Source: a virus (lineage: Duplodnaviria > Heunggongvirae > Uroviricota > Caudoviricetes). Taken from it: a DNA stretch of 17,227 nucleotides. Below the pieces are notes generated by a model. The model ran no database searches. It worked only from the letters and a program-made list of their open reading frames with translations, and was not told the origin of the DNA. A program made the position numbers and the translations under genes. Positions 1 to 15,576 of this stretch are shown here, piece by piece; positions within the stretch are counted from its first letter, which is position 1; each line of letters starts with the position of its first letter. Location: IMG/VR virus record IMGVR_UViG_2802429237_000005, positions 1-17,227 of that record. One strand, 5' to 3'.

Positions 1-342
1 CTACATACGACTCTGCTGCTTCTCCGTATGCACACGTTTGACTATCTTATAAATCCATTGCAGCGTCAGATTATATTTCTTCGCTAATTCGGCGTAGTTG
101 CGCCCATCGCACTCGCTATAGATTTGGTAGTCACGCTCCGATGCTCGTCCGGAGATCCCCTTAGGGAAATAAATGCTTTGCCCACCCCAGTTGCGCATCA
201 TTCGATCGGCAATGGCAAAACCCACATTTTCTGCCGATGAGCTGTCCAGATTAATGCTCTCAATCAGAACTTGCGATGCATGAAAAGCCAGGTCGTTAAT
301 GATCTCCGGTGTCCGGGCCATCTCTTTTGATTTTCGTATCAT
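1..342 (-). CDS. Mor/C-family transcriptional activator (Mu middle/late activator-like), 113 aa
   Basis: Complete minus-strand ORF with stop at 1-3 and start at 342. Size and C-terminal helix-turn-helix-like segment (GRNYAELAKKYNLTLQWIYKIVKR) fit the Mor/C activator family. GGAGA Shine-Dalgarno lies about 5 nt upstream of the ATG on the minus strand. Divergent from the lysis/tail operon. Confidence 0.7.
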   Translation of the reverse strand: MIRKSKEMARTPEIINDLAFHASQVLIESINLDSSSAENVGFAIADRMMRNWGGQSIYFPKGISGRASERDYQIYSECDGRNYAELAKKYNLTLQWIYKIVKRVHTEKQQSRM

Positions 343-565
343 TTTTCATCTCCATATATCTTGCATCCTGTATAAGACCCGATGCGTGTAAAACCACGGA
401 TATACGCTAAACAGTTGTTATTACTGTTACTCAATACATTCAACAAACAAATAAACAATTATCAGAAGTATAAAACTTTAATATCAATGAACTTCATAAA
501 TTCACAAAATAAATATATTGCTTGCGTTATGTTTCTTGCCAACAGGAGTACCATTTTACACGATG

Positions 566-581
566 CTGTATGTGTATACAG
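566..581. promoter_or_regulatory. LexA (SOS) box CTGTATGTGTATACAG in the divergent control region
   Basis: Read directly: tgCTGT-ATGTGTAT-ACAGta, a perfect CTGT-N8-ACAG palindrome with AT-rich centre and flanking T..A, matching the E. coli LexA consensus taCTGTatatatatACAGta. A TAAAAT -10-like hexamer on the minus strand (553-558) sits just downstream in the direction of the activator gene. Confidence 0.55.
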
Positions 582-879
582 TATTATTTTTACCTGTAGT
601 GTAAAAATAACGTTCTCCTCACAGTCGCTAAATTTCTTAAACAAACTTTAAAAATCAAATAACTATCGACTACCTCTACGATCCACCATCATCTTTCCCC
701 TGCATAATGACGCGCTTATTCTCCAGGTCAACTTTTACTCTTTTATTGATGGGGGGATTTATTAGCGGGCATGTTCATTTATAGAGAATCTATTTTTTAA
801 AGTTATTTATTAAAGCCTTTTTCATTCTTCACTGGAGGGTTCTGACGACACTAAACGCTCACTTATGAGGAGATATCGT

Positions 880-1167
880 ATGAAAAAAATCACATTTCCC
901 CGGCTTTCCGGTTGGCTGGCTGCAGCCATTGCTCTGATTGCATTGATCGGCTGGACCTCTTCAGCACAAATCCCGGTCGTCATTTATAAACTAAGCCTGG
1001 TTTCGCTTTCCGCAGTACTGGGATACTGGCTCGATCGCAGTTTGTTCCCCTGGGCACGACCTGACTCTTTTTCCCCCTGGAAGGAGCCGCGTTGCTGCGC
1101 GGCGGCAATGATTCGTCGGGCTATCATCGTTGCTGCCGTCTGCCTTTCCGTCGCGTTAGGGCTATAG
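880..1167 (+). CDS. holin-like small membrane protein with three predicted transmembrane segments
   Basis: ORF track 865-1167; the second in-frame ATG at 880 is preferred because GAGGA (867-871) lies 8 nt upstream. Three hydrophobic stretches (WLAAAIALIALIGW, LSLVSLSAVLGYWL, AIIVAAVCLSVALGL). Position immediately upstream of the endolysin. Function inferred from topology and context only. Confidence 0.55.
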   Translation: MKKITFPRLSGWLAAAIALIALIGWTSSAQIPVVIYKLSLVSLSAVLGYWLDRSLFPWARPDSFSPWKEPRCCAAAMIRRAIIVAAVCLSVALGL

Positions 1168-1169
1168 TG

Positions 1170-1775
1170 ATGTGGCTGAAATATATCGTGTCTATGATTA
1201 TTTTCGTTCTTTTCCCGCTTAACGCCTCTGAACCGCCGCGAGCCTCTCTGGCATGGCGAAACGAACTAATTCGTACCGCTCGAGAAGTCTGGGGACTGAA
1301 CGCCCCAGTGGCTGACTTTGCCGGGCAATTACATCAGGAGTCTGCCTGGCTGCCAATGGCACGTTCCCCTGTTGGCGCGCAGGGTATGGCGCAATTTATG
1401 CCTGCTACAGCGACATGGATAAGCCAGTTGTATCCACAACTGCGTGAAAACAAACCGTATAACCCAACCTGGGCAATTCGCGCGCTGGTGCAATATGACC
1501 AGCATTTGTGGAAAAACATCTCTGCGAAAAATGATTGTCAGCGTATGGCATTTACCCTAAGCGCCTATAACGGCGGTCAGGGATGGGTTAACCGGGATAA
1601 AAAACTGGCTGCATCCAAAGGGTTAGATGCCACTATCTGGTTTGGTCATGTCGAGCAAGTCAACGCCGGGCGCAGCCCCTCGAACTGGCGAGAAAATCGT
1701 CGCTACCCAAAGATGATTCTCTATCAACACGCCGCCCGCTATTTACTCTGGGGACAGGCAAGCTGTCTTCACTAA
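1170..1775 (+). CDS. endolysin, soluble lytic transglycosylase (SLT) domain with N-terminal signal/SAR sequence
   Basis: In-frame ATG at 1170 directly after the holin stop (TAG 1165-1167); the track start at 1092 would overlap the holin. N-terminus MWLKYIVSMIIFVLFPLNA is a hydrophobic signal or signal-anchor. Catalytic-region motifs typical of SLT domains: LHQESAW and AQGMAQFMPATA, plus AYNGG. Confidence 0.75.
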   Translation: MWLKYIVSMIIFVLFPLNASEPPRASLAWRNELIRTAREVWGLNAPVADFAGQLHQESAWLPMARSPVGAQGMAQFMPATATWISQLYPQLRENKPYNPTWAIRALVQYDQHLWKNISAKNDCQRMAFTLSAYNGGQGWVNRDKKLAASKGLDATIWFGHVEQVNAGRSPSNWRENRRYPKMILYQHAARYLLWGQASCLH

Positions 1776-1787
1776 TCAGAGGGGCCG

Positions 1788-2141
1788 ATGAAACTCAGTA
1801 TCGATTTTTGGGAAGTGATCTCCCTTATGCTTTCCTTCGTTGGATTAATATTTGCTGCCGGAAAATTGCTGTTAGCACAAATTGAAAAACGACTTAATGA
1901 ACGTTTTGAGTCTCTGGAAAATGCCCGCAGGGAATCAGAAACAAGTTGGTCGAAACTGGAAAGAGAATTTCTCGAATTTCGTGCCGAGCTTCCGCTGCAT
2001 TATGTCCGCAGAGAAGATTATCTTCGTGGGCAAGCTGTATTAGAAGCAAAGCTGGATGCCTTATATAGCAAAATCGAGCTGTTACAACGTGGCAGCTATA
2101 CTCTAAATAATTCGAGTTGCAGGAAGGCGGCAAGCGAATGA
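1788..2141 (+). CDS. membrane-anchored coiled-coil protein, possible i-spanin-like lysis accessory protein
   Basis: N-terminal transmembrane helix (VISLMLSFVGLIFAAGKLLL) followed by a charged heptad-like helical region. GAGGGG Shine-Dalgarno before the ATG. Sits in the lysis cassette. No embedded lipoprotein (o-spanin) ORF was found by manual frame reading. Confidence 0.45.
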   Translation: MKLSIDFWEVISLMLSFVGLIFAAGKLLLAQIEKRLNERFESLENARRESETSWSKLEREFLEFRAELPLHYVRREDYLRGQAVLEAKLDALYSKIELLQRGSYTLNNSSCRKAASE

Positions 2142-2231
2142 ATCTCCAGGAGCTTACATAAGTAAGTGACTGGGGTGAGCTAACGCAGACGCAGCACATG
2201 CAACTTGAAGTATGACGAGTATATTAAATAC

Positions 2232-2265
2232 ATCCCCACCTTTAGGTAAGCGTGGGGATTTTTAT
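2232..2265 (+). terminator. rho-independent terminator after the lysis cassette
   Basis: Inverted repeat ATCCCCAC (2232-2239) / GTGGGGAT (2252-2259) with a 12-nt loop, followed by TTTTTA (2260-2265). Confidence 0.6.
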
Positions 2266-2272
2266 AGTCATT

Positions 2273-2310
2273 CAATTTTTTCTCTAAATCACATTAAAAG
2301 ATTCTTCACC
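2273..2310 (+). promoter_or_regulatory. candidate activator-dependent promoter motif upstream of the tail-core genes
   Basis: CAAT-N7-CTAAATC-N4-TAAAAG block (2273-2300) repeated with identical spacing at 10832-10859, followed by ATTCTTCAC (2301-2309), which recurs at 824-832 upstream of the holin. Confidence 0.3.
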
Positions 2311-2372
2311 TTCACTGCTTCAGAATACATTTCAACGATAACGAAGTGAGCGGTAATTAAGGTACACCTCAT

Positions 2373-2828
2373 ATGAAAACTTTATCTGTAATGAATTATG
2401 TCGTGGTTAAATTACGTATTCGGCATCCTGAAATGGACATATTTATTTCATCTACGGACGCCCAAAAATATATTCCACAGACACAGCAAATTGCGGTGAT
2501 TATTAATTATAGCGGTTCTGTCTTTACCACGCCCGAAAGCAGTGATGCCATTGTGCAACAGCAAATACTCCGCTTAACCGCCACCGTTATTGTTGGCAAA
2601 AATTGTGACGCGTTAAACGCACTGGATCGCATACGCAGCACATTGGGTGGCCTTCAGCTTCCTGATTGCGATCGTCTTCTTTGGCTTGAAAAAGAAACTA
2701 ATACGGGTGAGAGCGGCGGTTTCTGCCGCTACATCCTGGAAATGGCGACCAGCTCGCTGTTTATCGCTGAACAGGAAAGCACGGATCTTCCCCTGCTTAC
2801 GGAAGTTAATTACGAGGAAACTGAATGA
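2373..2828 (+). CDS. hypothetical protein, 151 aa; placement suggests a tail completion/terminator-type protein
   Basis: Intact ORF, first gene after the terminator/promoter region, stop overlaps the next start (ATGA at 2825-2828). No motif I can assign with certainty; role inferred from its position before the sheath gene. Confidence 0.45.
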   Translation: MKTLSVMNYVVVKLRIRHPEMDIFISSTDAQKYIPQTQQIAVIINYSGSVFTTPESSDAIVQQQILRLTATVIVGKNCDALNALDRIRSTLGGLQLPDCDRLLWLEKETNTGESGGFCRYILEMATSSLFIAEQESTDLPLLTEVNYEETE

Positions 2829-3022
2829 AATACATCTACAACGGCCCGGCAAGCGGCGTCACCCTTGCCGACGGACAAGAAATCTTATTGTGGCCGAACA
2901 GTGAAATTGATCTGCCAGAAGACAACGAGTGGGTCATGACCATGATTGCCCGCAATCACCTGACTCCTGTCATCACTCAGGAAGAACAAAACAACGCAGA
3001 GGAAATTGTACATGGCAGCTAA
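2825..3022 (+). CDS. small conserved hypothetical protein, 65 aa, immediately upstream of the sheath gene
   Basis: Translationally coupled to flanking genes (ATGA overlap upstream, short overlap with the sheath start). Small acidic proteins in this position are common in Mu-like and P2-like tail clusters. Assignment by context. Confidence 0.45.
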   Translation: MKYIYNGPASGVTLADGQEILLWPNSEIDLPEDNEWVMTMIARNHLTPVITQEEQNNAEEIVHGS

Positions 3023-4436
3023 TTACCTGCACGGTGTAGAAACCATTGAAATTGAAACCGGCCCGCGTCCGGTTAAAGCGGTAAAATCCGCCGTCATCGC
3101 TTTAATCGGTACGGCCCCCTGTGGTCCGGTAAACAAACCAACATTATGCCTTTCTGAAAGCGATGCCGCGCAGTTTGGCGCAGGCATGGCTAACTTTACG
3201 ATCCCGCAAGCGCTGAAGGCAATTTATGACCACGGCGCCGGTACGGTGGTGGTGATTAACGTACTAGATCCGGCAAAACATGGCTCCAGCATCAGCAATG
3301 AGAGTATCACTTTTGATGCTAACAACCAGGCGAGACTCGCTCACCGCAATGTGCGTAACGTGGTACTAAAGCCCTCTTCATCAAATTCAACAACCTATAA
3401 CACCGCAGCATTTAGCGTAGATGAACAAACAGGCATAATTACCCGAAAAGGAGCCGACATTCCTCCTGGGGCAAAAGTTTGCGCCTATTATTCCTGGTGC
3501 GATCCTACAAAGGTTACCGCAGCCGATATTATCGGTGCCGTTAATACCGCAGGCGATCGCACGGGGATGAAACTGCTACAGGACACTTATAACCTGTATG
3601 GTTTCTACGCCAAAATCCTGCTTGCTCCCGTTTTCTGTACGCAAAAATCGGTGACTACTGAGCTAATTGCACAAGCGGAAAAACTCGGTGCTATCGCCTA
3701 CATTGACGCCCCAATCGGTACTACATTCCAGCAGGTGTTAGCTGGACGCGGTTCGCAAGGCGCAATCAACTTCAACACCAGCTCTGACCGTGCGCGTTTG
3801 TGCTATCCGCACGTCAAAGTTTATGACGGCGCAACCAACCAGGAAATTCTCGAACCGCTCTCTTCGCGCGCTGCCGGGCTGCGTGCCAAACTGGACGTGG
3901 AGAAAGGTTTCTGGTGGAGCAACTCAAACCAGGAAATTCAGGGTATTACCGGTATCGAACGTTCACTTTCCGCGATGATCGATGACCCGCAAAGTGAAGT
4001 GAATCAGCTCAACGAAAACGGCATTACCACTATTTTCAATAGTTACGGCTCTGGTCTGCGTTTATGGGGCAACCGCACTGCAGCATGGCCGACCGTGACC
4101 CATATGCGTAACTTTGAGAACGTTCGCCGCACGGGTGATGTGATTAACGAGTCGATCCGCTATTTCAGCCAACAGTATATTGATATGCCTATTAATCAGG
4201 CACTTATTGACGCGCTAACCGAATCGGTAAATACCTGGGGCCGAAAACTGATTGCCGACGGCGCACTGCTTGGCTTTGAGTGCTGGTACGATCCGGCGAG
4301 AAATTCACCGACTGAACTCAGCGCCGGGCATTTATTGCTGAGCTATAAATTCACCCCGCCGCCGCCGCTGGAACGTCTGACGTTTGAAACTGAAATTACT
4401 TCTGAATACTTAGTCTCTCTGGAGAGCAATAGCTAA
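3012..4436 (+). CDS. contractile tail sheath protein (P2 FI / Mu L-like)
   Basis: N-terminus MAANYLHGVETIEIETGPRPV and C-terminus CWYDPARNSPTELSAGHLLLSYKFTPPPPLERLTFETEI resemble recalled P2 FI sheath termini (xYHHGVQVLEI... and ...YIDYDYTPVPPLENLT...). ATG at 3012 preferred over the track's TTG at 3006; GAGGA lies upstream. Length of about 474 aa is typical. Confidence 0.9.
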   Translation: MAANYLHGVETIEIETGPRPVKAVKSAVIALIGTAPCGPVNKPTLCLSESDAAQFGAGMANFTIPQALKAIYDHGAGTVVVINVLDPAKHGSSISNESITFDANNQARLAHRNVRNVVLKPSSSNSTTYNTAAFSVDEQTGIITRKGADIPPGAKVCAYYSWCDPTKVTAADIIGAVNTAGDRTGMKLLQDTYNLYGFYAKILLAPVFCTQKSVTTELIAQAEKLGAIAYIDAPIGTTFQQVLAGRGSQGAINFNTSSDRARLCYPHVKVYDGATNQEILEPLSSRAAGLRAKLDVEKGFWWSNSNQEIQGITGIERSLSAMIDDPQSEVNQLNENGITTIFNSYGSGLRLWGNRTAAWPTVTHMRNFENVRRTGDVINESIRYFSQQYIDMPINQALIDALTESVNTWGRKLIADGALLGFECWYDPARNSPTELSAGHLLLSYKFTPPPPLERLTFETEITSEYLVSLESNS

Positions 4437-4960
4437 TGGCTGGAAAAATTCAAATTAATCGTATTACCAATGCCAATATTTATCTCGATGGTAATAACCT
4501 TTTAGGTCGTGCAACCGAAATTAAATTGCCGGATGTCAGTTTAATTATGCAAGAGCATAAGGCACTGGGCATGGTGGGTAAAATCGAACTCCCGGCTGGT
4601 TTCGATAAACTGGAGGGGGAAATTAAATGGAACTCCTTTTATCATGACGTCATGCGTAAAACGGCAAATCCGTGGCAGGCGGTAGCATTACAGTGCCGCT
4701 CCAGCATTGATTGCTATAACTCCCAGGGGAAAGCGAATCAATTAGCATTAGTGACACATTTAACCGTGATGTTTAAAAAGAATCCACTGGGCACATTTAA
4801 ACAGAATGAAAACCCGGAATTCAGCAGCGCCTTTGGCTGCACTTATATTAAACAAGTAGTCGATGGCGAAACACTGCTGGAACTGGATTACCTGGCGAAT
4901 ATTTTCCGCGTTAACGGCGTGGATCAATTAAGTACCTATCGCAATAACATCGGTGGTTAA
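4436..4960 (+). CDS. tail tube protein (P2 FII-like)
   Basis: ATG overlaps the sheath stop (TAATG). C-terminal motif VNGVDQLSTYRNNIGG matches the conserved end of P2-type tube proteins (recalled VNGVDRLEQHRRNIGL). Size 174 aa. Confidence 0.9.
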   Translation: MAGKIQINRITNANIYLDGNNLLGRATEIKLPDVSLIMQEHKALGMVGKIELPAGFDKLEGEIKWNSFYHDVMRKTANPWQAVALQCRSSIDCYNSQGKANQLALVTHLTVMFKKNPLGTFKQNENPEFSSAFGCTYIKQVVDGETLLELDYLANIFRVNGVDQLSTYRNNIGG

Positions 4961-4964
4961 GTTA

Positions 4965-4984
4965 TTCGGGGCTACCGCCCCGAA
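4965..4984 (+). other. GC-rich stem-loop after the tube gene (mRNA stabiliser or attenuator candidate)
   Basis: Perfect inverted repeat TTCGGGGC (4965-4972) / GCCCCGAA (4977-4984) with loop TACC. No downstream U-tract, so not a classical terminator. Confidence 0.4.
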
Positions 4985-5010
4985 CTTCGCAAAATAAATA
5001 AGGATACAAA

Positions 5011-5328
5011 ATGACAGAACACTATATCTTACAGTTTCCGTTTACTTCAGCGGCGGGAGACGTAATTAACACTCTGCAATTACGTCGCCTGAAAGTAAAA
5101 GATATGCGCAACGCACGCCGAATCAGCGAAAAGCCAGAAGAATGGGATGAACCGCTGATGGCGGCGATGACCGGACTGGTGCCGGAAGATTTAGCTGAAA
5201 TGGATTTGCTGGATTACCAGGCGTTGCAGAAACGATTTCAATCCATGCTTAGCGTGGCTACAGAATCCTCCCTTGCTATGGCAGGCAATGGCGCTACTGG
5301 CGAGATGGTTTCGCTTTCCGCCCAGTGA
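5011..5328 (+). CDS. tail assembly chaperone (P2 gpE-like position)
   Basis: 105-aa acidic ORF between tube and tape-measure genes, AAGGAT Shine-Dalgarno at 5000-5005. Followed by a 188-nt gap in which the +1 frame stays open to 5416, the expected arrangement for a frameshift-extended chaperone. Confidence 0.75.
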   Translation: MTEHYILQFPFTSAAGDVINTLQLRRLKVKDMRNARRISEKPEEWDEPLMAAMTGLVPEDLAEMDLLDYQALQKRFQSMLSVATESSLAMAGNGATGEMVSLSAQ

Positions 5329-5402
5329 GATCGACGCGCTCACAATAGATGACTTTAGCAACTGGCTGGATGAAGCCAGCGCTCAAATAAAGATCGAATA
5401 TG

Positions 5403-5433
5403 ACTCGCAGACCTGATGTCTGCGAGTTCTTTA
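5403..5433 (+). terminator. hairpin with T-rich tail between chaperone and tape-measure genes (attenuator/terminator candidate)
   Basis: ACTCGCAGAC (5403-5412) / GTCTGCGAGT (5418-5427) form a 10-bp perfect stem with loop CTGAT, followed by TCTTTA. The stop codon of the +1-frame extension (TGA 5414-5416) lies in the loop. Confidence 0.4.
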
Positions 5434-5516
5434 AAGCCCGCCAGGTTTATTTCTTCCCTGCCCATTTTTCAGAAAACTAACCAGCGGGCCATCACCAATC
5501 TATAAGAGAAACAATT

Positions 5517-7892
5517 TTGGCCAACGATATTATTACCCTGCTTCAGACGCGTAATGAGACGTTGACGCAGGCAATAGCCCGTTACGGCTCACTCAACGCC
5601 AGAACATTGTTAGCTCTCTCTTCTCAGCAAGCGACAGTAATCAAACTAACGCAGCAACTTGCCGATTCTGCTCTCCGCCTGGAGGAAAATAGCCGGAACC
5701 GCGCTGATCTGATGGAGAAAACCCAAACATTTGCCGGGCAATTTAACAAGGTATTCAATGTTGAAGCCCCTGACTGGAAGTTGCCGTATGAGTTTCAGGA
5801 CAACATGGTCAATATAGCGACCAAAGGTGGGATGAATGATACAACCAGCGTGACGCTCAGCCTTAACCTGCGCGACTGGAGCATGGATTTTAACCAGCAG
5901 CAGACCACATTACAGAACGCAGCCCAAACGCTGATCGAAGGCAATTTGTCGTCGTTGCAGGATCTCAACCGTTATATGCCGGAGATCGCCAAAGCTGCCA
6001 CCGCCACACGCGAAAGTGCTGAAACATGGGCGAATGCCGCGCTCACAACTCATGATCGCCTGAATATTGCGCCAGAAAATTTCCACGCCGCGCAAAACAT
6101 GATGTACGACATTAGCAAAAGCGGTGGGCCTGCCGTTGCCGAGCAAACGCAGTGGATAGACAAATTTGCAGGTAAAACGGGTGCGCAAGGTTTAGAAGGT
6201 ATGGCTGAACTGACCGCCACAATGCAGATCGCCATGAAAAACGGTGCCAGCGCCAGTGCGGCGGCGGAGAATTTCGACCACTTTCTGCAAACCACCTTTT
6301 CGAAAAAAACCGATAACTGGTTCGCCAGCCAGGGCGTCGATCTGCAAGGCTCTCTGCTTGAACATCAGCAAAACGGCATGGGTGTTAGCGAAGCCATGAC
6401 TCATATCGTGCAAATGCAGCTTGAGAAGATGAATCCGGCGATCCTCGGCACCTTCAAACGCACCATGCAGATTGAGGATTTATCTGCTCGCGGCAATGCA
6501 CTGCAATCGATGGTGACGCAATTTAATCTGGGTGAAATGTTCGGCGATGCACAAACTGTGGAATTCCTGGCTCCTATGTTGGCGAATATGGAAGAGTATC
6601 GCCAGTTAAAAACTTCCGCCATGCAAGCCAGCAGCAAGAATCTGATTGACTCCGACTTTTCTGCGCAGATGGCCTCGCCTATTGAACAGACTAAAGCGTT
6701 ACAGCTGGCGTTAAATGATTTATGGCTCAGCATTGGCTTGCAATTAATGCCGCTGATTGGCGAGCTGGCGCAAAGCCTTACGCCAGTGATTCGCCAGTTC
6801 AGCGCCTGGATACGTGAACACCCGGCGCTGGTGCAAAACATTGCGAAAATCGTCGGGGCGATTTGGCTGTTTAACGGCGCACTGAATGTTTTAAAGCTGG
6901 GCGCGAACTTCATCGCCTCGCCGTTTATTCGTCTGGTCGATATCTTCCTGAAAGTCAGGGCAAGTCTGGCGCTCACAGGCGCAGCGAGTAAGGTACTATC
7001 GGCGGTTAAGTCATTGGGTGGCGGCGCAAAATGGCTATCGCTACTGCTTGGTCGTGGCCTAATCGGAGCATTGAAACTGGTTGGTTTAACCGTTCTCTCG
7101 CTAGGCCGGGTGTTATTGATGAATCCCATTGGTCTGGTCATCACTGCGATTGCGGGCGCCGCTTATCTGATTTATCGCAACTGGGAGCCTATCTCAAGGT
7201 TCTTTTCGACCATCTGGCAACGTATCACCACGGCCTTTGACGGTGGCATTGCAGGAATTTGCCGGTTGATTCTCGACTGGTCGCCGCTGGAGTTGTTCTA
7301 TAGCGCCTTTTCCAGTGTGATGAATTGGTTTGGCGTTGAGATGCCAGCGAGTTTTAGCGAGTTCGGCAGCAATCTTCTGGGCAGTCTGGTTGACGGCATA
7401 ATGAATGCCTTCCCCGCTCTGAAAGGCATTATTGATCAGGTCAAAAACGTCTTACCGGACTGGCTAAAAACCACGATGGGTATTAGCACAGAAGGATCGG
7501 CTACGGCTGTTACAAGCACGACGAATACCGCATCCGTCTCCCCCGCAACCGTTGTTCCAGGCGTTGCCGGTGCAATTTTAACACCTCTGGTGGGCAAACA
7601 ACTCGCGCCCCCCAGCAAAACGACAACGCCGCCATCGGCACCAGCGGCAAAAAATACAGCCACCAACCCCGCATCGGCTTCTTTACCTGGTAAATCCGTA
7701 ACCAAACCGGCGACGCTACCTTCCCGTTCCTCAGGAAAAGTTCAGGTGAATTTTTCGCCACAAATTACCGTGCAGGGTAACGGACAAAACACCACTAAAG
7801 ACATTCAGAACGTGTTGACGATGAGTAAACGCGAACTGGAAAGAATGATTAACGACGTAATGGCGCAACAACAGCGCCGGGGGTATGCCTGA
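5517..7892 (+). CDS. tail tape measure protein
   Basis: 791-aa ORF directly after the chaperone, the longest gene in the cluster. Internal hydrophobic segment (LIGALKLVGLTVLSLGRVLLMNPIGLVITAIAGAAYLIY) and Thr/Pro/Ala/Ser-rich C-terminal region. TTG start at 5517 is the first start codon after an in-frame stop at 5478-5480; the start is uncertain. Confidence 0.85.
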   Translation: MANDIITLLQTRNETLTQAIARYGSLNARTLLALSSQQATVIKLTQQLADSALRLEENSRNRADLMEKTQTFAGQFNKVFNVEAPDWKLPYEFQDNMVNIATKGGMNDTTSVTLSLNLRDWSMDFNQQQTTLQNAAQTLIEGNLSSLQDLNRYMPEIAKAATATRESAETWANAALTTHDRLNIAPENFHAAQNMMYDISKSGGPAVAEQTQWIDKFAGKTGAQGLEGMAELTATMQIAMKNGASASAAAENFDHFLQTTFSKKTDNWFASQGVDLQGSLLEHQQNGMGVSEAMTHIVQMQLEKMNPAILGTFKRTMQIEDLSARGNALQSMVTQFNLGEMFGDAQTVEFLAPMLANMEEYRQLKTSAMQASSKNLIDSDFSAQMASPIEQTKALQLALNDLWLSIGLQLMPLIGELAQSLTPVIRQFSAWIREHPALVQNIAKIVGAIWLFNGALNVLKLGANFIASPFIRLVDIFLKVRASLALTGAASKVLSAVKSLGGGAKWLSLLLGRGLIGALKLVGLTVLSLGRVLLMNPIGLVITAIAGAAYLIYRNWEPISRFFSTIWQRITTAFDGGIAGICRLILDWSPLELFYSAFSSVMNWFGVEMPASFSEFGSNLLGSLVDGIMNAFPALKGIIDQVKNVLPDWLKTTMGISTEGSATAVTSTTNTASVSPATVVPGVAGAILTPLVGKQLAPPSKTTTPPSAPAAKNTATNPASASLPGKSVTKPATLPSRSSGKVQVNFSPQITVQGNGQNTTKDIQNVLTMSKRELERMINDVMAQQQRRGYA

Positions 7893-8845
7893 TGTATGCC
7901 GTTTTAGGAGAGATTGAATTTAAGGTTGTCACATTCTGGGACGGCTTTAAAAGCACAATGGGCGTGGATTACGCCACTCATGCCCGTATAGAGGGCAAAC
8001 CCGGCGTGCAGTTTATTGGCGATAAGCTGGATATGCTGGCGCTGGAATTTTCTCTGCACAGCCAGTTTTGCCAGCCCACAACAGAGCTGAATCGACTGCG
8101 TGAAGCCATGCTTGCGCACAAAGCGATGGCACTGGTATTTGGCAATGGCGATTATCGCGGCTGGTTTGTGATTACAGAGTTAACCGCCACCCACCAGCAC
8201 ACCGATCCCTGGGGCAATGTGATTGCCCAAAGCGGAACGATGTCGCTCCAGGAGTACACTGGCGCTCCTAAAAATCCACTCTTACCCCCGGCGATTACCG
8301 CCCAGGAGCCCAACATCGAGGAAAAGGCGAGCGATTTTCCAGACATGGTGGAGTCCTGGTTTGATCAGATATTAAACGCCATTGAAGAAGGTATGCGTAA
8401 GGCTAAAGAGATGCTGGATGAACTGACTCAAGCCATTGAAGATATTAAAAAAACAGTGGCAAAGGTCAAAGCACTAATTAAAGAGGCCAAAGCGTTAAAA
8501 GAAAAGTGTGAAAAGATAATTACGTCGTTGAAAAAAACAATCGACGCCATCGAAACCCTGTTTAAACAACCAATAGATCTGCAAACGCTGGCAGGACTCC
8601 CAAAAGCGTTGTCGGCGCAGATTAAAGCTTTACTGGGTAACATGCCAGGTATCCGGGACTGCGCCAATGACGCCAGTACGCTGGTTGACCATGCTCAGGC
8701 GCTTTTCGACGACATTACCAGCGACATCGCCGAAGCGACGTTTGATAAAGCCGCAGCGTTGGTTGATCAGGCACGAACAACGGTACAACAAACCACTCCA
8801 GCAGTGAGCCAGCTTGCTGCCGCGACCATTACGAGGAGCTGGTGA
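7892..8845 (+). CDS. P2 gpU-like tail protein with a ~190-aa C-terminal helical extension
   Basis: ATG overlaps the tape-measure stop (TGATG). The N-terminal ~125 aa (MYAVLGEIEFKVV...GWFVITELT) resemble recalled P2 gpU (MMVLGLFVF...GMFVI). The C-terminal half is Lys/Glu/Ala-rich with heptad-like periodicity (KAKEMLDELTQAIEDIKKTVAKVKALIKEAKALKEK). Confidence 0.7.
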   Translation: MYAVLGEIEFKVVTFWDGFKSTMGVDYATHARIEGKPGVQFIGDKLDMLALEFSLHSQFCQPTTELNRLREAMLAHKAMALVFGNGDYRGWFVITELTATHQHTDPWGNVIAQSGTMSLQEYTGAPKNPLLPPAITAQEPNIEEKASDFPDMVESWFDQILNAIEEGMRKAKEMLDELTQAIEDIKKTVAKVKALIKEAKALKEKCEKIITSLKKTIDAIETLFKQPIDLQTLAGLPKALSAQIKALLGNMPGIRDCANDASTLVDHAQALFDDITSDIAEATFDKAAALVDQARTTVQQTTPAVSQLAAATITRSW

Positions 8846-9054
8846 TGCGATACCTTGAACATATCACCACCGACGGCGAACGCTGGGATAATCTGGCATG
8901 GCATTACTACGGCGATGCGCTGGCTTATGAACGTATTATCGCCGCCAATCCACATGTCGCCATTTACCCGGTACTGCCTTCCGGTATTCAGCTCATTATT
9001 CCGGTCATTTCCGTCAACAAAACCTTATCGGAGATCCCACCATGGCTGAGATAA
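8845..9054 (+). CDS. tail protein X (P2 gpX-like)
   Basis: 69-aa protein with a ...WHYYGD...IIAANP... pattern resembling recalled P2 gpX (...RYYGR...VLAANP...). GAGGAG Shine-Dalgarno at 8833-8838. ATG at 8845 preferred over GTG at 8842. Confidence 0.8.
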   Translation: MRYLEHITTDGERWDNLAWHYYGDALAYERIIAANPHVAIYPVLPSGIQLIIPVISVNKTLSEIPPWLR

Positions 9055-10082
9055 GCGTATCTGGTGGCGTCTTTGCCACGCTTGCGCCCATTTTTACCCT
9101 CTGGTATGGGCATAAAGATATCACTTATGACATCACGCCCTATGTCACCAGCATCAGTTACCACGACAGCATCAAAAACGAGTCGGATACCATCGCGATT
9201 ACCCTGGATGATACCGATGGACGCTGGATAAAAGAGTGGTATCCCGGCAAAGGCGATACGCTGGCGCTGCATATGGGTTATCAGGGGGAGAAGCTTCTCG
9301 ATTGCGGTCAGTATATTATTGATAAAATTGATATTTCAGCGCCACCTTCCACGGTAAATATTGATGGCATCGCCACTTCCGTCAATCAGGCGCTGCGCAC
9401 CCGTAACAGCCAGGGTTTTGAAGAAACGACGCTTTCGGCTATTGCCAGCCGTATCGCGCAAACTCACGGTCTGAAGCTGGTGGGCAAAATCGAACCGCTG
9501 ACGATTGACCGGGTGACACAGTATGGCGAAACCGATGTCGGATTTCTCAAGCGTCTGGCCAGTGAATATGGCTATGCCGTAAAAGTGACGACAAAAGAGC
9601 TTATTTTTTCACATCTGCCGACGTTACGCTGCCTGGCGCCAGTGAAAAGCATCGACCGCAAAGAGGTTTCCCACTTCACCTTCAAAGACACCATTAATCG
9701 CATCTACAAGAACGCCACCGTACAACATCAAAACAGTAAGAAAAAAGAGTTGGTTATCTACACACATGACAGCCAGCAAAAACCGTCCGCCCGTGGAGCA
9801 GGCACCAGTGCCGACACGTTAAAACTCAATAGCCGGGCGCCGGACGTTGGCGCGGCACAGGCAAAGGCCAACGCTGCACTCAACAGCCACAACGAATATC
9901 AGCAAACCGGAACGCTAAAGATGATGGGCTGCCCGGAACTGACGGCAGGCAATAAAATCGAGCTAACCGATTTTGGTGTGCTTTCCGGTCAGTGGCTGAT
10001 TGATAAATCTACTCACAGTTTTGTGCGCAGCGGCTATACCACTGAAATCGACGTTTCGCGCGGGCCAGCGACCAGCCAGTAA
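9042..10082 (+). CDS. baseplate hub / late control gene D protein (P2 gpD-like)
   Basis: 346-aa ORF with patterns matching recalled gpD: GDTLALHMGY, TTLSAIASRIAQTHGLKL, GETDVGFLKRLASEYGYAV. Position directly after gpX. Confidence 0.85.
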   Translation: MAEISVSGGVFATLAPIFTLWYGHKDITYDITPYVTSISYHDSIKNESDTIAITLDDTDGRWIKEWYPGKGDTLALHMGYQGEKLLDCGQYIIDKIDISAPPSTVNIDGIATSVNQALRTRNSQGFEETTLSAIASRIAQTHGLKLVGKIEPLTIDRVTQYGETDVGFLKRLASEYGYAVKVTTKELIFSHLPTLRCLAPVKSIDRKEVSHFTFKDTINRIYKNATVQHQNSKKKELVIYTHDSQQKPSARGAGTSADTLKLNSRAPDVGAAQAKANAALNSHNEYQQTGTLKMMGCPELTAGNKIELTDFGVLSGQWLIDKSTHSFVRSGYTTEIDVSRGPATSQ

Positions 10083-10091
10083 GGAGGCAAT

Positions 10092-10793
10092 ATGAAAGGA
10101 GTAACCCGGCAAACGGGGATTATCAGCGATATTGACGAAACCAGCGTTCGGGTGCGGGTCACGCTGCCAGAGTGTGACAATCTGAAGAGCAACTGGCTTG
10201 CGGTACTTCAACGCAATTCCCAGGACAATAAAGACTACTGGCTACCGGATATGGGCGAGCAAGTGGAAGTTCTGCTGGACGATAACGGTGAAGATGGCGT
10301 GGTGCTGGGCGCAGTTTATTCTACGGTTGACACCGCGCCAGTGGCCTCGCGCGACAAACGTTACGTCCAGTTTTCTGATGGCGCAGCGTTTGAATATGAC
10401 CGCAGCACCCACCAACTTACGATTAACGGCGGTATCGAGAAAATCGTGATTGAGGTTATCGACAGTACCCGCCTGACATCGCCCAACATTGAGATTAAAG
10501 CCCAACAGGTCAGCGTGACTTCCGATACCGTCGATGTTAAAGCGACCGATGTCAACATCGACGCCACTGAGGTCAATGTTAAAGCGGCAGCAGTGACGGT
10601 AGATGCGCCCATAAGTACCTTTACTGGTAACGTCACGGTAATGAAAAAACTCACCTGGCTTGGCGGGATGGCAGGAAGTGGAGGCATCGGTAACGCCGCC
10701 ACGATAACCGGCAATGTCAACGTGATCGGCAACGTTCAGGCCAGCGGCACATTGCAGGACAGCGGAGGCAACTCAAACCACCATTCACACTAA
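10092..10793 (+). CDS. baseplate central spike (P2 gpV-like)
   Basis: AAGGAGG Shine-Dalgarno before the ATG. N-terminal OB-fold-like region, repetitive V/T/D-rich beta-helical segment (VTSDTVDVKATDVNIDATEVNVKAAAVTVDA) and C-terminal His cluster NSNHHSH, consistent with the metal-binding apex of P2-type spikes. Confidence 0.85.
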   Translation: MKGVTRQTGIISDIDETSVRVRVTLPECDNLKSNWLAVLQRNSQDNKDYWLPDMGEQVEVLLDDNGEDGVVLGAVYSTVDTAPVASRDKRYVQFSDGAAFEYDRSTHQLTINGGIEKIVIEVIDSTRLTSPNIEIKAQQVSVTSDTVDVKATDVNIDATEVNVKAAAVTVDAPISTFTGNVTVMKKLTWLGGMAGSGGIGNAATITGNVNVIGNVQASGTLQDSGGNSNHHSH

Positions 10794-10799
10794 CTTTTA

Positions 10800-10828
10800 A
10801 CCCGCCTGATGGCGGGTTTTCTCTTTTT
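10800..10828 (+). terminator. rho-independent terminator between spike and baseplate-wedge genes
   Basis: ACCCGCC (10800-10806) / GGCGGGT (10811-10817) with loop TGAT, followed by TTTCTCTTTTT. Confidence 0.65.
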
Positions 10829-10831
10829 AAT

Positions 10832-10859
10832 CAATCAGTTTTCTAAATCGCTTTAATAT
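10832..10859 (+). promoter_or_regulatory. candidate activator-dependent promoter motif upstream of gpW
   Basis: CAAT-N7-CTAAATC-N4-TAATAT with the same internal spacing as the block at 2273-2300. Lies between the terminator and the gpW start codon. Confidence 0.3.
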
Positions 10860-10891
10860 CGCCACTGCCCGTTCAGGGCGAAAATACCCTC

Positions 10892-11251
10892 ATGAACACA
10901 AAAACAAGACCCTCAACGCTGCACTGGCAACCAGCCTTGCAGCGGCCTGAAGAATACGTCTGCGGGCAGGATGATATTCACCAGGCAATACACATCATTC
11001 TGCGTACACCGCGCGGCAGTGATCCCCACAGACCGCTGTTTGGCAGCAACTTGTGGCACTACATCGATTACCCCATCGAGCGGGCAATCCCGCATGTGGT
11101 ACGGGAGTCGGTGGAAGCCATCCGCCAGTGGGAACCGCGATGCCGGTTGCTGAAGGTGACACCAGTAATCGACGGTGAACATCTGACGTTACGTGTGCAA
11201 TGGCGCGCCGCTGACGGTGTTATCAACTCAACGGAGGTGTTATGGCGATAG
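10892..11251 (+). CDS. baseplate wedge protein (P2 gpW / GPW_gp25 family)
   Basis: 119 aa. Pattern DDIHQAIHIILRTPRGSDPHRPLFGSNLW...AIRQWEPR matches the gpW/gp25 family (recalled P2 W: ...IGDILRTPVGSRVMRRDYGS...VLKWEPR). Confidence 0.85.
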   Translation: MNTKTRPSTLHWQPALQRPEEYVCGQDDIHQAIHIILRTPRGSDPHRPLFGSNLWHYIDYPIERAIPHVVRESVEAIRQWEPRCRLLKVTPVIDGEHLTLRVQWRAADGVINSTEVLWR

Positions 11252-12357
11252 CCGAACCCAATTTTATTGACCGCGATCCTGCGCAAATTACCAGTGAGAT
11301 GATTGCGCAATACGAAGATGCCAGCGGTAAAAAACTCTACCCGGCACAGGCCGAGCGGTTGCTTATCGACCTGTTTGCCTATCGTGAAAACCTTGTACGC
11401 ATCGCCATTCAGGAAGCGGCGAAACAAAACCTGGTCGCGTATTCCCGCGCGCCAATGCTGGATTATTTAGGTGAACTGGTGGGCGTTCACCGTTTACCTG
11501 CACAACCGGCAAAAACGACGTTGCAGTTTTCGGTCGTCAGTACATATGCCAGCAATATCCTGATTCCCCAGGGGACGCGGGCCAGTGCCTCTGATAGCGT
11601 GATGTTCGCCACCGATGAAGATGTTCTGCTTCCGGCGGGAAGTTTGCATATCGCCGTTCCTGCCACCAGCCTCGCAACAGGTGAACAGGGTAACGGCTGG
11701 CAGCCTGCACAAATTAGCGCACTTGTCGACAGGATTGGTCATTATGACATCAACGTAACCAACCTGACTGCGTCAACGGGCGGCTGCGGTGAGGAGAGCG
11801 ATGAGGCATTGCGCCAGCGTATCCAACTGGCACCAGAAAGCTTCAGCAATGCAGGCAGCTATGGCGCATACCGCTTTCATACGCTTTCTGTTAGCCAGTC
11901 GATTATTGACGTTGCAGTACTGGGACCAGATGAGGGGTTGCCAGAAGGCTGCGTGGAGATCTACCCGCTAACGCTGAATGGCCTGCCGGGCGTGGAACTG
12001 CTCGTGCAAATCGAACAGGAAGTTAGCAAGGAGAAAAAACGTCCGCTGACCGACAAAGTGAGTGCGAAATGCGCTCTTCGAGTACCGTATGAGATCCGTG
12101 CGCAGCTAACGCTGTTTACCACCGCCGATCAGGAGACAACGCTGGCTGCGGCGCGTAAAGCGATTAGCCTCTGGACGCAACAGCGGCAGAAACATCTGGG
12201 ACAGGACATTGTGCCAAACCAGATAATCAAAGTGTTACAGGTCAATGGCGTCTATGACGTTGTGCTGAACTTGCCTACAAAACGCATTTTGCAGGCACAT
12301 GAGTGGGCGGAATGCACCGCAATAGACGTCACGATTGCCGGAGTCAGCGATGGATAA
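11242..12357 (+). CDS. baseplate protein J (P2 gpJ-like)
   Basis: 371 aa, GGAGG Shine-Dalgarno before the ATG, 10-nt overlap with gpW. Conserved position and size; N-terminal region resembles the baseplate J family. Confidence 0.85.
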   Translation: MAIAEPNFIDRDPAQITSEMIAQYEDASGKKLYPAQAERLLIDLFAYRENLVRIAIQEAAKQNLVAYSRAPMLDYLGELVGVHRLPAQPAKTTLQFSVVSTYASNILIPQGTRASASDSVMFATDEDVLLPAGSLHIAVPATSLATGEQGNGWQPAQISALVDRIGHYDINVTNLTASTGGCGEESDEALRQRIQLAPESFSNAGSYGAYRFHTLSVSQSIIDVAVLGPDEGLPEGCVEIYPLTLNGLPGVELLVQIEQEVSKEKKRPLTDKVSAKCALRVPYEIRAQLTLFTTADQETTLAAARKAISLWTQQRQKHLGQDIVPNQIIKVLQVNGVYDVVLNLPTKRILQAHEWAECTAIDVTIAGVSDG

Positions 12358-12982
12358 ATTGCTGCCGCCACCGCCGCTTGCCAGCGATGAGCGTTTTTCG
12401 ATTCTGGCAAATATCGCCGCCGAGCGTTTTGCCCAACTCGATCTGACGGCGTTGATGGTTTATCTGGTCGACCTGGTTGATGCTTCGGCTTTGCCTACGC
12501 TTGCAGAACAATTTCACGTTCAGGGGCTGGAAGGTTGGTTATTTACCACCGATGAGCGGGAGAAGCGCGAGTTAATTAAGCAAGCCATTGAGCTGCATAA
12601 ATATAAAGGAACAATTTGGGCGGTACGGCAGGTACTGGAAATACTCTCGCTACCCGGAACTATTTCCGAATGGTTTGAATATGGCGGGAAGGCTTATTTT
12701 TTTAAGGTTGATATAGAGCTGGTGGATAAAGGCATGGATGAAAACCTTTTCAATAATCTGGTAGAACTCATTCATGAATATAAAAACACACGTTCAAAAC
12801 TGGAAGCATTAATTGTCTGGATCATTAACCAAAGTGCTATTCCTGTTATTGGTTGTGCACTTTATGGTGGTGAACTGACGACGGTTTTACCTTTCCAGAT
12901 AAGGGAAGTACAGCAAAACACATCAATTTATTACGGAACAGGGCAATGGAGCCTTGAAATTACATCTATTTACCCGGAGTGA
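12350..12982 (+). CDS. baseplate/tail protein I (P2 gpI-like)
   Basis: ATG at 12350 with GGAG at 12340-12343 preferred over the track's TTG at 12335. Motif HKYKGTIWAVRQVLE resembles recalled P2 gpI (HCHKGTIGAIRRVVE). Confidence 0.8.
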   Translation: MDKLLPPPPLASDERFSILANIAAERFAQLDLTALMVYLVDLVDASALPTLAEQFHVQGLEGWLFTTDEREKRELIKQAIELHKYKGTIWAVRQVLEILSLPGTISEWFEYGGKAYFFKVDIELVDKGMDENLFNNLVELIHEYKNTRSKLEALIVWIINQSAIPVIGCALYGGELTTVLPFQIREVQQNTSIYYGTGQWSLEITSIYPE

Positions 12983-12984
12983 TT

Positions 12985-14466
12985 ATGGATAATGAGTTTT
13001 ATACTCTGCTCACCAGCAGGGGGATGGCAAAAATTGCCAATGCCCTTGCAAATAAAAAACAGCTTCATCTACAAAAGATGGCCATTGGAGACGGCGGTGG
13101 GCAATATTATGAACCCACCGTCAGCCAAACTAAATTACGTCACGAAGTATGGCGTGGCGATTTAAATACATTAACCGTTGCGCCCAATAATCCTAACTGG
13201 TTAATTGCGGAACTTGTACTGCCCGAAAATATCGGTGGCTGGTATGTACGTGAAGTCGGTGTTTTTGATACTGACGGTGAACTCATTGCTATCGGTAAAT
13301 TCCCTGAGTCGTATAAACCGCTATTACCCGGCGGCAGCGGTAAGCAAGTTTGCATTCGTCTTATTATGGAAGTTTCCAATACGGCAGCGGTAACACTCAC
13401 CGTTGACCCCAGTATTGTGCTGGCAACGCGCGATTACGTCGATTCGCAACTGGATGAACATGAACGTTCAACTAATCATCCTGATGCTACGTTATCGCAA
13501 AAAGGCTTTACGCAGTTGAGTAACTCCACTGACAGCGATGACGAAACCAAAGCGGCTACGCCCAAAGCGGTGAAAGCAGCGATGATTGAAGCTCGAAATC
13601 ATCGTCATACCTGGAGTCAGATTACTGATATTCCGGATGGCACGCTGGCGCAAAAAGGGATCGTGAAGCTTAATAACGCGACCAATAGTACCAGCACGAC
13701 AGAGGCGGCGACACCGAGCGCGGTCAAGGCGGCGTATGACCTGGCGAATGGTAAGGCTGCGGGAAACCATACTCACCCATGGGGGCAGATTACGGGTGTT
13801 CCAGACGGCACCCTGTCGCAAAAAGGGATTGTGACGCTTAATAACGCGACGGATAGCACCAGTACGACTGAGGCGGCGACGCCTAGTGCGGTGAAGGCGG
13901 CGTATGACTTGGCGAATGGTAAGGCTGCGGGTAGTCATACGCACCCCTGGGGGCAGATTACCAATATTCCCGACGCAACTCTTGGTAAGAAAGGAATTGT
14001 TCAGCTAAGCAGTACCGTCCCTAATACCAGTACAACAGAAGCAGCAACGCCATACTCAGTTAAGGTTGCCTATGACCTTGCGAACACTAAAGCTCCGGCA
14101 AGCCATACTCATCCATGGAATCAAATTACTGGTATCCCGGACGGTACGCTGACGCAAAAAGGGATTGTGAAGCTTAATAACACAACAAACAGCACCAGTA
14201 CAACAGAGGCGGCGACACCCAGTGCGGTGAAGGCTGCGATGGACAAAGCAAATACAGCTTTGAATAACACCACTGCATCTATATCAGATGTCAGACTGGG
14301 TGCTAAATTTGATCAGGTTATGGCAAAAGGGGGGCGCTATGAATTTCCTGGTAATGTTCTGACTGGGTTGAGAATTATCGGAGAAGTGGATGGAGATGAT
14401 CTCGCTATATTTCGCCCACTTCAGATAAAGGTTAGAGGTTCTTGGTATACGGTAGGACAACTTTAA
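12985..14466 (+). CDS. tail fiber protein (P2 gpH-like N-terminal domain, tandem-repeat shaft, conserved C-terminal domain)
   Basis: ATG at 12985 with GGAG upstream (track start is GTG at 12979). N-terminal region (...MAIGDGGG...HEVWRGDLN...IAELVLPENIGGWYVREVGVFD...YKPLLPGGSGKQ...) matches the P2 H-type fiber N-terminus. Five tandem repeats of the ATPKAVKAAxDLAN type. C-terminus GLRIIGEVDGDD...FRP. Confidence 0.9.
   Translation: MDNEFYTLLTSRGMAKIANALANKKQLHLQKMAIGDGGGQYYEPTVSQTKLRHEVWRGDLNTLTVAPNNPNWLIAELVLPENIGGWYVREVGVFDTDGELIAIGKFPESYKPLLPGGSGKQVCIRLIMEVSNTAAVTLTVDPSIVLATRDYVDSQLDEHERSTNHPDATLSQKGFTQLSNSTDSDDETKAATPKAVKAAMIEARNHRHTWSQITDIPDGTLAQKGIVKLNNATNSTSTTEAATPSAVKAAYDLANGKAAGNHTHPWGQITGVPDGTLSQKGIVTLNNATDSTSTTEAATPSAVKAAYDLANGKAAGSHTHPWGQITNIPDATLGKKGIVQLSSTVPNTSTTEAATPYSVKVAYDLANTKAPASHTHPWNQITGIPDGTLTQKGIVKLNNTTNSTSTTEAATPSAVKAAMDKANTALNNTTASISDVRLGAKFDQVMAKGGRYEFPGNVLTGLRIIGEVDGDDLAIFRPLQIKVRGSWYTVGQL
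13477..14247 (+). repeat. five in-frame tandem repeats (153-168 nt; 51-56 aa) in the tail fiber shaft
   Basis: The unit TL(S/A/T)QKGIVxLNNxTxSTSTTEAATPSAVKAAYDLANGKAAGxHTHPWxQITxIPDG recurs five times; the nucleotide period measured between CAAAAAGGGAT copies is 153, 168, 168, 168 nt. Confidence 0.85.
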
Positions 14467-15119: not shown

Positions 15120-15571
15120 GTAAAACCACTGTCTGGCTCGCTTGTTATAAGGGCCGAACAGAGCACCGCGGTATTGCCCGACTGGCTGACTGGCTTACCC
15201 GTAAGATCACACGCGGTAGTTATTCCCACTGTGAATTAGCCGTTAAGCATGGTGAAAAGAGTTACCTTTGTTACTCCGCATCCCTACGCGATCGCGGCGT
15301 ACGCGGAAAGATAATGCCATTACCGCCAGATAAGTGGGATATGCTGCCACTTAACTCCAGCCTTCAGGACGTTGAAGCTTTTTTCCATAAACATGATGGC
15401 AAAAAATATGACTGGCGCGGCGCGCTTGGAATTATCACCGGCAATAAAGAACAGCGCGATCGCCTGTTTTGCAGTGAATTTTGTGCTGAATTCCTGCAAT
15501 TAAAAGATAGTTGGCGATACTCACCAAATCACCTGTATGCCTTAGTAAGTAACTGGCAATCCCATCCGTAA
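15116..15571 (+). CDS. hypothetical 151-aa protein, last gene of the tail operon; tentative permuted papain-fold (NlpC/P60 / LRAT / YiiX-like) signature
   Basis: ATGA start/stop overlap with the assembly-protein gene implies translational coupling. N-terminal His motif (TEHRGIA) and C-terminal Cys motif (LFCSEFCAEF) about 100 residues apart, an order and spacing reminiscent of LRAT/YiiX-type enzymes. The fold assignment is a motif-level guess. Confidence 0.6.
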   Translation: MSKTTVWLACYKGRTEHRGIARLADWLTRKITRGSYSHCELAVKHGEKSYLCYSASLRDRGVRGKIMPLPPDKWDMLPLNSSLQDVEAFFHKHDGKKYDWRGALGIITGNKEQRDRLFCSEFCAEFLQLKDSWRYSPNHLYALVSNWQSHP

Positions 15572-15576
15572 ATAAC

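Follow-up and report, generated by a model that had tools for sequence, protein, structure and literature searches.

A probable LexA operator beside the Mor-type activator gene of a tailocin-type gene cluster in enterobacteria

How is a cluster of tail genes switched on if the only regulator that it encodes is an activator? The question is raised by a stretch of caudoviricete DNA of 17,227 nucleotides (IMG/VR record IMGVR_UViG_2802429237_000005, positions 1 to 17,227), which in full length is called the window here. At its left end lies a minus-strand gene for a transcription activator of the Mor/C/RdgB family, and divergent from it follow a lysis operon and the genes of a contractile tail. 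The region between the activator gene and the first lysis gene, a holin gene, is 537 bp long, AT-rich, and contains a palindrome that a preliminary description of this DNA had read as a LexA box. With moderate confidence we favour a model in which this host LexA operator gates the Mor-type activator of a tail-plus-lysis cluster. The features on which the model turns are:

1-342, minus strand: gene for a Mor/C/RdgB-family transcription activator of 113 amino acids, stop codon at 1-3 (Pfam PF08765)
564-583, no strand assigned: candidate LexA operator (SOS box), 20-mer TGCTGTATGTGTATACAGTA, with the core CTGT-N8-ACAG at 566-581
880-1167, plus strand: holin gene, 95 amino acids, first gene of the lysis operon (Pfam Holin_2-3, E=4e-26)

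The core of the box, CTGTATGTGTATACAG, is a perfect CTGT-N8-ACAG palindrome with an AT-rich centre, just as first described, and it is the sole site of this pattern in the window. The bare 16-mer pattern alone is only mildly improbable: shuffled windows contained 0.15 such sites on average, and 26 of 200 shuffles (13%) contained at least one. The 20-mer at 564-583 deviates from the consensus TACTGTATATATATACAGTA at three positions, and a match this close was reached in none of the 200 shuffles. Scoring with a LexA matrix had been proposed along with the preliminary description; our heterology matrix, for which 28 operators of LexA in E. coli were used and whose index values are approximate, gave about 3.2, in the same range as the strong operators of E. 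coli recA, sulA and lexA. Proven LexA operators have an index below about 12, and the matrix scan of the 17.2 kb returned no second site below 11. We regard 566-581 as very probably a LexA operator.

The strongest argument against a chance origin of the box is its conservation. We compared 40 homologous Mor-holin intergenic regions, taken from E. coli alleles, Salmonella, Dryocola, Phytobacter, Superficieibacter, and metagenomic and IMG/VR contigs (loci are cited by our own L numbers where needed). Between genera these regions are 50-57% identical to the window, and 35 of the 40 carry a perfect CTGT-N8-ACAG at the equivalent position. The arms of the box are invariant while its inner eight bases vary, giving 18 distinct 20-mers among the 35 boxes, and the heterology index of the relatives' boxes ranges from 0.3 to 5.2. 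Fixed arms with changing inner bases and flanks, in at least five genera, are the pattern expected from selection on the contacts made by LexA. The spacing is informative as well. From the box to the start codon of Mor it is 224 bp in the window and 221-246 bp in the relatives, apart from 293 bp in L005 and L176, whereas the distance from the box to the start codon of the holin gene varies more (298-349 bp). L005 (Superficieibacter electus) has a 62-bp GC-rich insertion in its AT-rich Mor leader, which takes the former distance from about 232 to 293 bp.

One might object that the palindrome is not a working operator at all and represents a relic, a chance palindrome in AT-rich DNA or the site of another protein, the element being silent or under some different control. 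The 13% of shuffled windows with a chance site speak for this objection, and so do one lineage that manages without the box, the omission of the gene from two Salmonella regulon lists and the uninduced late genes of strain 14028, all discussed below. However, the match of the 20-mer was never reached by shuffling, the arms are kept perfectly across genera while inner bases and flanks change, and the box is lost in a locus whose tail genes appear to be lost (L142) and in remnants that consist of Mor only. We therefore regard a palindrome without operator function as improbable.

Five conserved islands stand out in the alignment:

343-367 (island 340-367), minus strand: leader and ribosome-binding region of Mor
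549-590: CATTTTACAC (552-561) together with the LexA box
640-658 (limits approximate), no strand assigned: AAACAAACTTTAAAAATCAA, aligned motif AAACTTTAAAAATCAA
about 787-821: ATTTTTTAAAGTTATTTATTAAAG
858-877: ribosome-binding region of the holin gene

The fourth of these islands leads to the presumed targets of the activator, for which three features are relevant:

791-815, plus strand: most conserved intergenic block, TATTTTTTAAAGTTATTTATTAAAG, putative Mor-type activator site for the lysis operon
847-852, plus strand: -10-like GACACT (consensus nAyACT) of a predicted late promoter, in conserved alignment columns
2276-2300, plus strand: AT-rich block TTTTTTCTCTAAATCACATTAAAAG upstream of the tail operon (gp37), conserved in 11 relatives

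The block at 791-815 is near-invariant across genera, occurs once in the window, and its end is fixed at 67-70 nt from the holin gene's start codon. No -35 could be recognised for the predicted late promoter at 847-852. A fixed block, a weak -10-like nAyACT and a missing -35 are together the expected look of an activator-dependent late promoter, and we infer that 791-815 is the binding site of the Mor-type activator. The 11-mer TTTTTAAAGTT within this block (794-804, plus strand) recurs in inverted form on the minus strand (654 to 644), and each of the two copies lies inside an island that is conserved across genera. The inverted TTTTTAAAGTT, which repeats the first half of the late-promoter block, is located upstream of the box as Mor is transcribed and could be a second activator site, allowing autoregulation. 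A different candidate, the minus-strand TACACT (603 to 598) of a Mor-dependent promoter that would follow the inverted half-site downstream, fits the window and E. coli; being unconserved in Salmonella and Phytobacter, it was rejected as a general feature.

In front of the tail genes, the block at 2276-2300 follows a terminator-like hairpin and shows the motif TTTTTTCTCTAAA..ATTAAAAG in the 11 relatives, which suggests that the tail operon has an activator-dependent promoter of its own. The likeness of this block to the holin-proximal one is confined to a T-run and TAAAG/TTAAAAG motifs, and the full 23-nt matrix of the holin-proximal block did not find the other two conserved AT-rich blocks. 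As a working hypothesis, the three AT-rich blocks might be a common activator site, for which we claim a shared short motif only. A metagenome scan with the late-promoter block was given up: the pattern is too AT-rich and hit 120 mostly unrelated loci, of which only L115 and L129 were relevant.

Which promoter, then, does the box cover? Three predicted elements have to be considered:

553-558, minus strand: predicted -10 TAAAAT of a Mor-directed promoter, within the block CATTTTACAC (552-561)
576-581, minus strand: CTGTAT at the -35 position of the same promoter, with a 17-bp spacer, inside the LexA box
555-582, plus strand: rival promoter found by consensus scan, TTTACA (555-560), a 16-bp spacer and TACAGT (577-582)

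The preliminary description had named a minus-strand TAAAAT at 553-558 and had placed the box over the -35 region of a promoter for the activator. The hexamer is there (ATTTTA on the plus strand), and the box, 7 bp upstream of it, covers positions -35 to -20 of the predicted Mor-directed promoter. Of 22 distinct sequences, 19 have ATTTTA here; the Dryocola variant reads TAAAGT, and L170-172 carry TAAAAT on the other side of the box, so that TAAAAT or TAAAGT adjoins the box in all 22. In L170-172, which have kept box and TAAAAT and have lost both TTTACA and TACAGT, the box would thus lie around the start of the Mor-directed minus-strand transcript.

The evidence that weighs against a LexA-gated activator begins at this promoter. 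Its -35, CTGTAT, fits TTGACA at only two of six positions, the promoter was not reported by the sigma-70 consensus scan, and the 224 bp between box and Mor imply a poorly conserved leader of about 200 nt. The plus-strand TTTACA-16-TACAGT fits the sigma-70 consensus better (9/12). Of the claim that the box sits on the -35 of the activator promoter, the position and the conserved TAAAAT are upheld, while the hexamer itself is poor and has a better-fitting competitor on the opposite strand. This competitor might indeed be the true target. Starting at about 589 and directed toward the holin gene, it would place the late operon under direct repression by LexA, either alone or with the box as a divergent operator shared with the Mor promoter, like that of uvrA-ssb, which would amount to a feed-forward arrangement. 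Among the sigma-70-like predictions it alone recurs in the same place from genus to genus, its TTTACA is kept in 20 of the 22 distinct sequences, the box covers its spacer and -10, which is a classic position for strong repression, and no terminator is predicted between 589 and 880 of the window.

However, TACAGT is dictated by the LexA consensus, so that its conservation is not independent evidence, and TTTACA overlaps the minus-strand TAAAAT. Since both predicted promoters moreover share the conserved TTTTACA, conservation alone cannot separate the two. What does favour the Mor-directed promoter is that TAAAAT or TAAAGT is universal, whereas the plus-strand -10 has lost its critical last T in 4 of the 22 distinct sequences, and that L170-172 drop both plus-strand hexamers and yet keep the box and TAAAAT. 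The near-constant distance between box and Mor start codon points in the same direction, given the variable distance to the holin gene, and so does the fact that the holin gene already has its own strictly positioned block with the look of a late promoter. A plus-strand promoter would need a variable leader of about 290 nt, and it would render the holin-proximal block and the activator redundant. In Salmonella, finally, the gene at the Mor position was induced by nalidixic acid, while the list of induced genes contained no holin or tail gene. Taken together, direct repression of the lysis operon through the plus-strand promoter, alone or by way of a shared operator, seems unlikely to us, albeit the strongest rival of the model. 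The supplements of PMC10794520 give no transcript start or promoter for the Salmonella genes STM4217-4219, and the supplement of PMC9879122 gives none either.

The length of the intergenic region (about 540 bp) invites a further thought, namely that LexA controls a small SOS-induced RNA or peptide encoded there, comparable to tisB/istR or dinQ. Open reading frames (ORFs) of 89 and 60 amino acids overlap the box in the window, and plus-strand hairpins follow the box in Salmonella and Phytobacter, one of the Salmonella hairpins with a T-run. Yet the ORFs that span the box vary in frame and length among the relatives, the one of 89 amino acids shrinking to 28-40 in E. coli, and neither ORF has a Pfam match. 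The flanks of the box show little conservation and contain indels, neither a fold nor a terminator is conserved in the plus-strand leader, which folds at just -1.8 kcal/mol in the window, and a search against Rfam returned nothing above chance, with PinT as its only hit (18 bits, threshold 60). As the hairpins are confined to Salmonella and Phytobacter, the idea of a small RNA with a terminator after the box was dropped, and we rate any small RNA or peptide as the target of LexA as very improbable.

Returning to the LexA-gated activator, published expression data bear on both steps of the cascade. In RNA-seq of S. Typhimurium 14028 treated with nalidixic acid, STM14_5073 rose 4.08-fold, from 49 to 204 transcripts per million (TPM) (PMC8072944, Dataset S1). 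STM14_5073, 348 nt long, occupies the position of the Mor ortholog beside lysC. Its induction agrees with the first step, and the induction of this gene without STM14_5042-5072 is a further reason for us to favour the Mor-directed promoter. The same data add to the evidence on the other side. None of STM14_5042-5072, the lysis and tail genes included, is among the induced genes (PMC8072944, Dataset S1), so that the second step of the cascade gains no support from these data. The comparison with nalidixic acid also mixes growth phase with SOS induction, STM14_5073 is already at about 49 TPM without inducer, and it is absent from the 48-gene SOS table of that study (PMC8072944) as well as from an earlier in-silico list of the Salmonella SOS regulon. 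Furthermore, the box in strain 14028 is presumed from other Salmonella sequences, L019 and L165-169, of which the latter are taken as Salmonella solely because their box flanks resemble L019. That STM14_5073 is missing from the SOS lists could mean either that 14028 has no box or that the gene was overlooked; its absence from the two regulon studies and the uninduced late genes are also what a palindrome without operator function would predict. The preliminary description had suggested a cascade from DNA damage via the activator to lysis and tail genes, and the roughly fourfold rise of the Mor-position gene in 14028 agrees with its upper half, whereas the uninduced late genes do not agree with its lower half.

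Copies without the box have to be weighed in the same way. It is absent from 5 of the 40 regions, namely from L140, L174, L178 and L179, which represent one Enterobacter-type lineage, and from L142. The four Enterobacter-type copies retain the genes for Mor, holin and transglycosylase, hence LexA control is not universal. Their holin-proximal block is shortened, with CCATTTTA still at the corresponding place, and the lineage may be regulated differently or be decaying. Together with L141, which is listed with it, this lineage bears a Mor allele named for Enterobacter hormaechei. L142 is of another kind. In this 3-kb stretch the lysis cassette (holin, transglycosylase, membrane protein) is directly followed by a gene for a RlaP nucleotidyltransferase, the tail genes appear to be lost, the LexA box is gone and the holin-proximal block is retained. 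In the Salmonella loci L147, L148 and L150 only the Mor gene is left beside lysC, with a hexapeptide-repeat acetyltransferase gene at the position of the holin gene. Homology of these remnants to the full element stops about 150 bp upstream of Mor, and the region of the box is gone.

If the Mor-directed promoter is the target, the element could work as follows. In the undamaged cell, a LexA dimer on 564-583 would keep minus-strand transcription of Mor (342 to 1) low. DNA damage would activate RecA, and LexA would cleave itself. The activator would then be produced and would bind 791-815, probably also the related block at 2276-2300. By this it would turn on promoters that lack a -35, and so the holin/transglycosylase lysis cassette and the tail genes. 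One might go further and envision that the element, a BcepMu-like phage module retained beside lysC in several enterobacterial genera, dropped the repressor and the early operon of the phage and was rewired by one host LexA operator, so that the host decides when it fires, while autoregulation might add all-or-none firing in a subpopulation of cells; to this broader account we give even chances.

Besides Mor and holin, the window contains:

1170-1775, plus strand: lytic transglycosylase gene (Pfam SLT domain, E. coli annotation)
1788-2141, plus strand: gene for a small membrane protein, last of the lysis cassette (E. coli annotation)
2234-2263, plus strand: terminator-like hairpin CCCCAC...GTGGGG followed by a T-run
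2373-15571, plus strand: contractile-tail genes in Mu/BcepMu order (Pfam matches)

The activator matches PF08765 over residues 10-112 with 127.8 bits (E=2e-37), as well as the solved structure of Mu Mor, 1RR7 (E=7e-8), and Mu C (E=3.5e-5). For the holin gene, which has the ribosome-binding site GAGGAG at 867-872, the start codon follows the E. coli annotation. The tail genes run in the order Gp37, sheath, tube, chaperone, tape measure, gpU/X/D-like, baseplate V/W/J/I, tail fibre and a DUF4376 fibre-assembly-like gene. Thus the set is complete (sheath, tube, tape measure, baseplate, fibre), and all its members are long intact ORFs.

A copy with 93% identity occurs in 197 of 5426 complete E. coli genomes. 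In E. coli S10 it is located between lysC and yjbD and consists of the regulator gene, the lysis genes, the tail genes and two cargo genes, with no head, terminase, transposase, integrase or repressor gene in this interval. As the window starts at the stop codon of Mor, the headless assignment on the left flank rests on the E. coli S10 copy. Neither between lysC and yjbD of E. coli S10 nor in the window did we find a gene for a cI/LexA-like repressor with an S24 peptidase, and Mor is the sole regulator gene of the element. The Salmonella copy also adjoins lysC, the notes of its record mapping it to STM4212-4219 of LT2, and two more contig sets, from sequencing-run and metagenome assemblies, carry the element beside lysC. 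Judged by its genes alone, the cluster is a domesticated headless tail-plus-lysis module of the tailocin type and would be expected to produce tail particles. A search of the literature found no paper on this cluster. The 'tailocin' described for E. coli ST131 (PMC9205054) is a different element, and so are the Epel endolysins of extraintestinal pathogenic E. coli (ExPEC) with their LexA boxes (PMC9621596).

As to its origin, the sheath is 71-74% identical to those of BcepMu-like transposable phages, from which, by this measure, the element is derived. Klebsiella phage KP12, a complete BcepMu-like phage, encodes a Mor homolog that is annotated as 'rdgB' and 45% identical to the window protein. 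There the homolog closes the early operon, and the entire 35-kb genome has not a single CTGT-N8-ACAG. The more distant Mor relatives of Pasteurellaceae likewise belong to Mu-like early operons, and upstream of their Mor genes CTGT-N8-ACAG is absent. Since the box is absent from KP12 and from the relatives in Pasteurellaceae, it belongs to the domesticated form and not to the parent phage.

How does this wiring compare to known systems? In the R- and F-pyocins of P. aeruginosa, DNA damage and RecA remove PrtR, which gives rise to the activator PrtN and in turn to expression of the lysis and tail genes of a headless cluster. The element of the window resembles this two-tier cascade, in which removal of a repressor yields an activator of lysis and tail genes, although here the cascade is proposed from the genes. 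In contrast to PrtR/PrtN, the element encodes no PrtR-like cleavable repressor, host LexA being the apparent repressor, and its activator belongs to the Mor/C family instead of the PrtN family. Related work includes PMC12066065 and PMC8609362. With Mu/BcepMu-like phages the element shares the family of the activator, the order of tail genes, a Gp37 gene and the lysis cassette, and its predicted late promoter, which has a conserved upstream block and at best a poor -35, is like those of Mu Mor/C. In these phages, however, the Mor gene is the last of a repressor-controlled early operon and has no LexA box, whereas the element here has lost early region, transposase and head genes, and a promoter region of its own, marked by a LexA box, serves the activator gene.

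In Pectobacterium, RdgA and RdgB control pectin lyase, carotovoricin and lysis after DNA damage, RdgB being Mor-like. This control by RdgA/RdgB was reportedly described by Liu et al. in 1994. In both cases a damage signal would pass via a repressor to a Mor-like activator, and the 'rdgB' annotation in KP12 fits such a likeness. Carotovoricin itself is described as a Mu-type tailocin whose cluster has no repressor gene of its own (PMC13566846, 2026). Unlike the element of the window, Pectobacterium uses the dedicated repressor RdgA, and rdgA and rdgB are located away from the tailocin cluster. In the window, by contrast, activator gene and lysis operon diverge, and a canonical host LexA box stands in front of the former.

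Direct control by host LexA is known for colicin operons, tum of coliphage 186, the antirepressors of Gifsy prophages, CTXphi and GIL01. All of them have in common with the window a canonical host LexA box and need no cleavable repressor encoded by the element. However, their targets are a toxin or lysis gene, an antirepressor or an early promoter, and not a Mor/C-type activator of a tail cluster. The dinI-like genes of Gifsy are listed in PMC8072944.

Our literature searches (Mor with tailocin, tailocin with LexA box) gave no description of a LexA box on a tailocin's own Mor/C-type activator. The preliminary description had called direct LexA control of such an activator an unusual wiring. 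Damage-activator-tailocin cascades and direct control by LexA are both already known, so that this holds for their combination: new, on our analysis, would be only that host LexA takes the place of a dedicated repressor in a cascade from SOS via an activator to a tailocin. The case is a tidy one in well-studied bacteria and in principle no surprise. If the model is correct, an uncharacterised tailocin-type element has a very simple trigger that is owned by the host, and the SOS regulon gains a gene missing from the published Salmonella lists. It would furthermore be a clear example of the domestication of a transposable-phage module, in which a host operator took the place of phage repression, and DNA-damaging antibiotics are then predicted to cause lysis and release of tails in carrier strains. 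Carriers of the element include E. coli, many Salmonella serovars and other enterobacteria. The small circuit, which comprises one operator, one activator and two conserved promoter blocks, should be easy to test and to reuse.

Some minor observations concern the leader of Mor and the cargo genes. On the minus strand (window 358-421), just upstream of the ribosome-binding site of Mor, lies GGTGC(A/G), which in most relatives recurs inverted some 45-60 nt further upstream, as seen by eye in the alignment, and the leader RNA could form a hairpin beside the ribosome-binding site. The partner sequence of this hairpin is a different one in the window and in E. coli (GCATC...GATGC). At the far end of the element the cargo is not the same: a gene for a group-1 (GT4) glycosyltransferase occupies 16085-17227 of the window and runs off its end, while E. 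coli S10 (L001, 35775-37699) has a nucleotidyltransferase gene and, on the opposite strand, a slipin-family gene.

One last copy, L153 from E. coli CREC-544, is disrupted at the box itself. ISKox3, an insertion sequence of the ISL3 family, sits inside the LexA box (within 520-620 of L153), and the right half of the box, ATACACATACAG..., remains on the holin side. No Mor gene is annotated in the 1.3-kb stretch beyond the insertion, and the insertion looks like a natural knock-out of the regulatory region.

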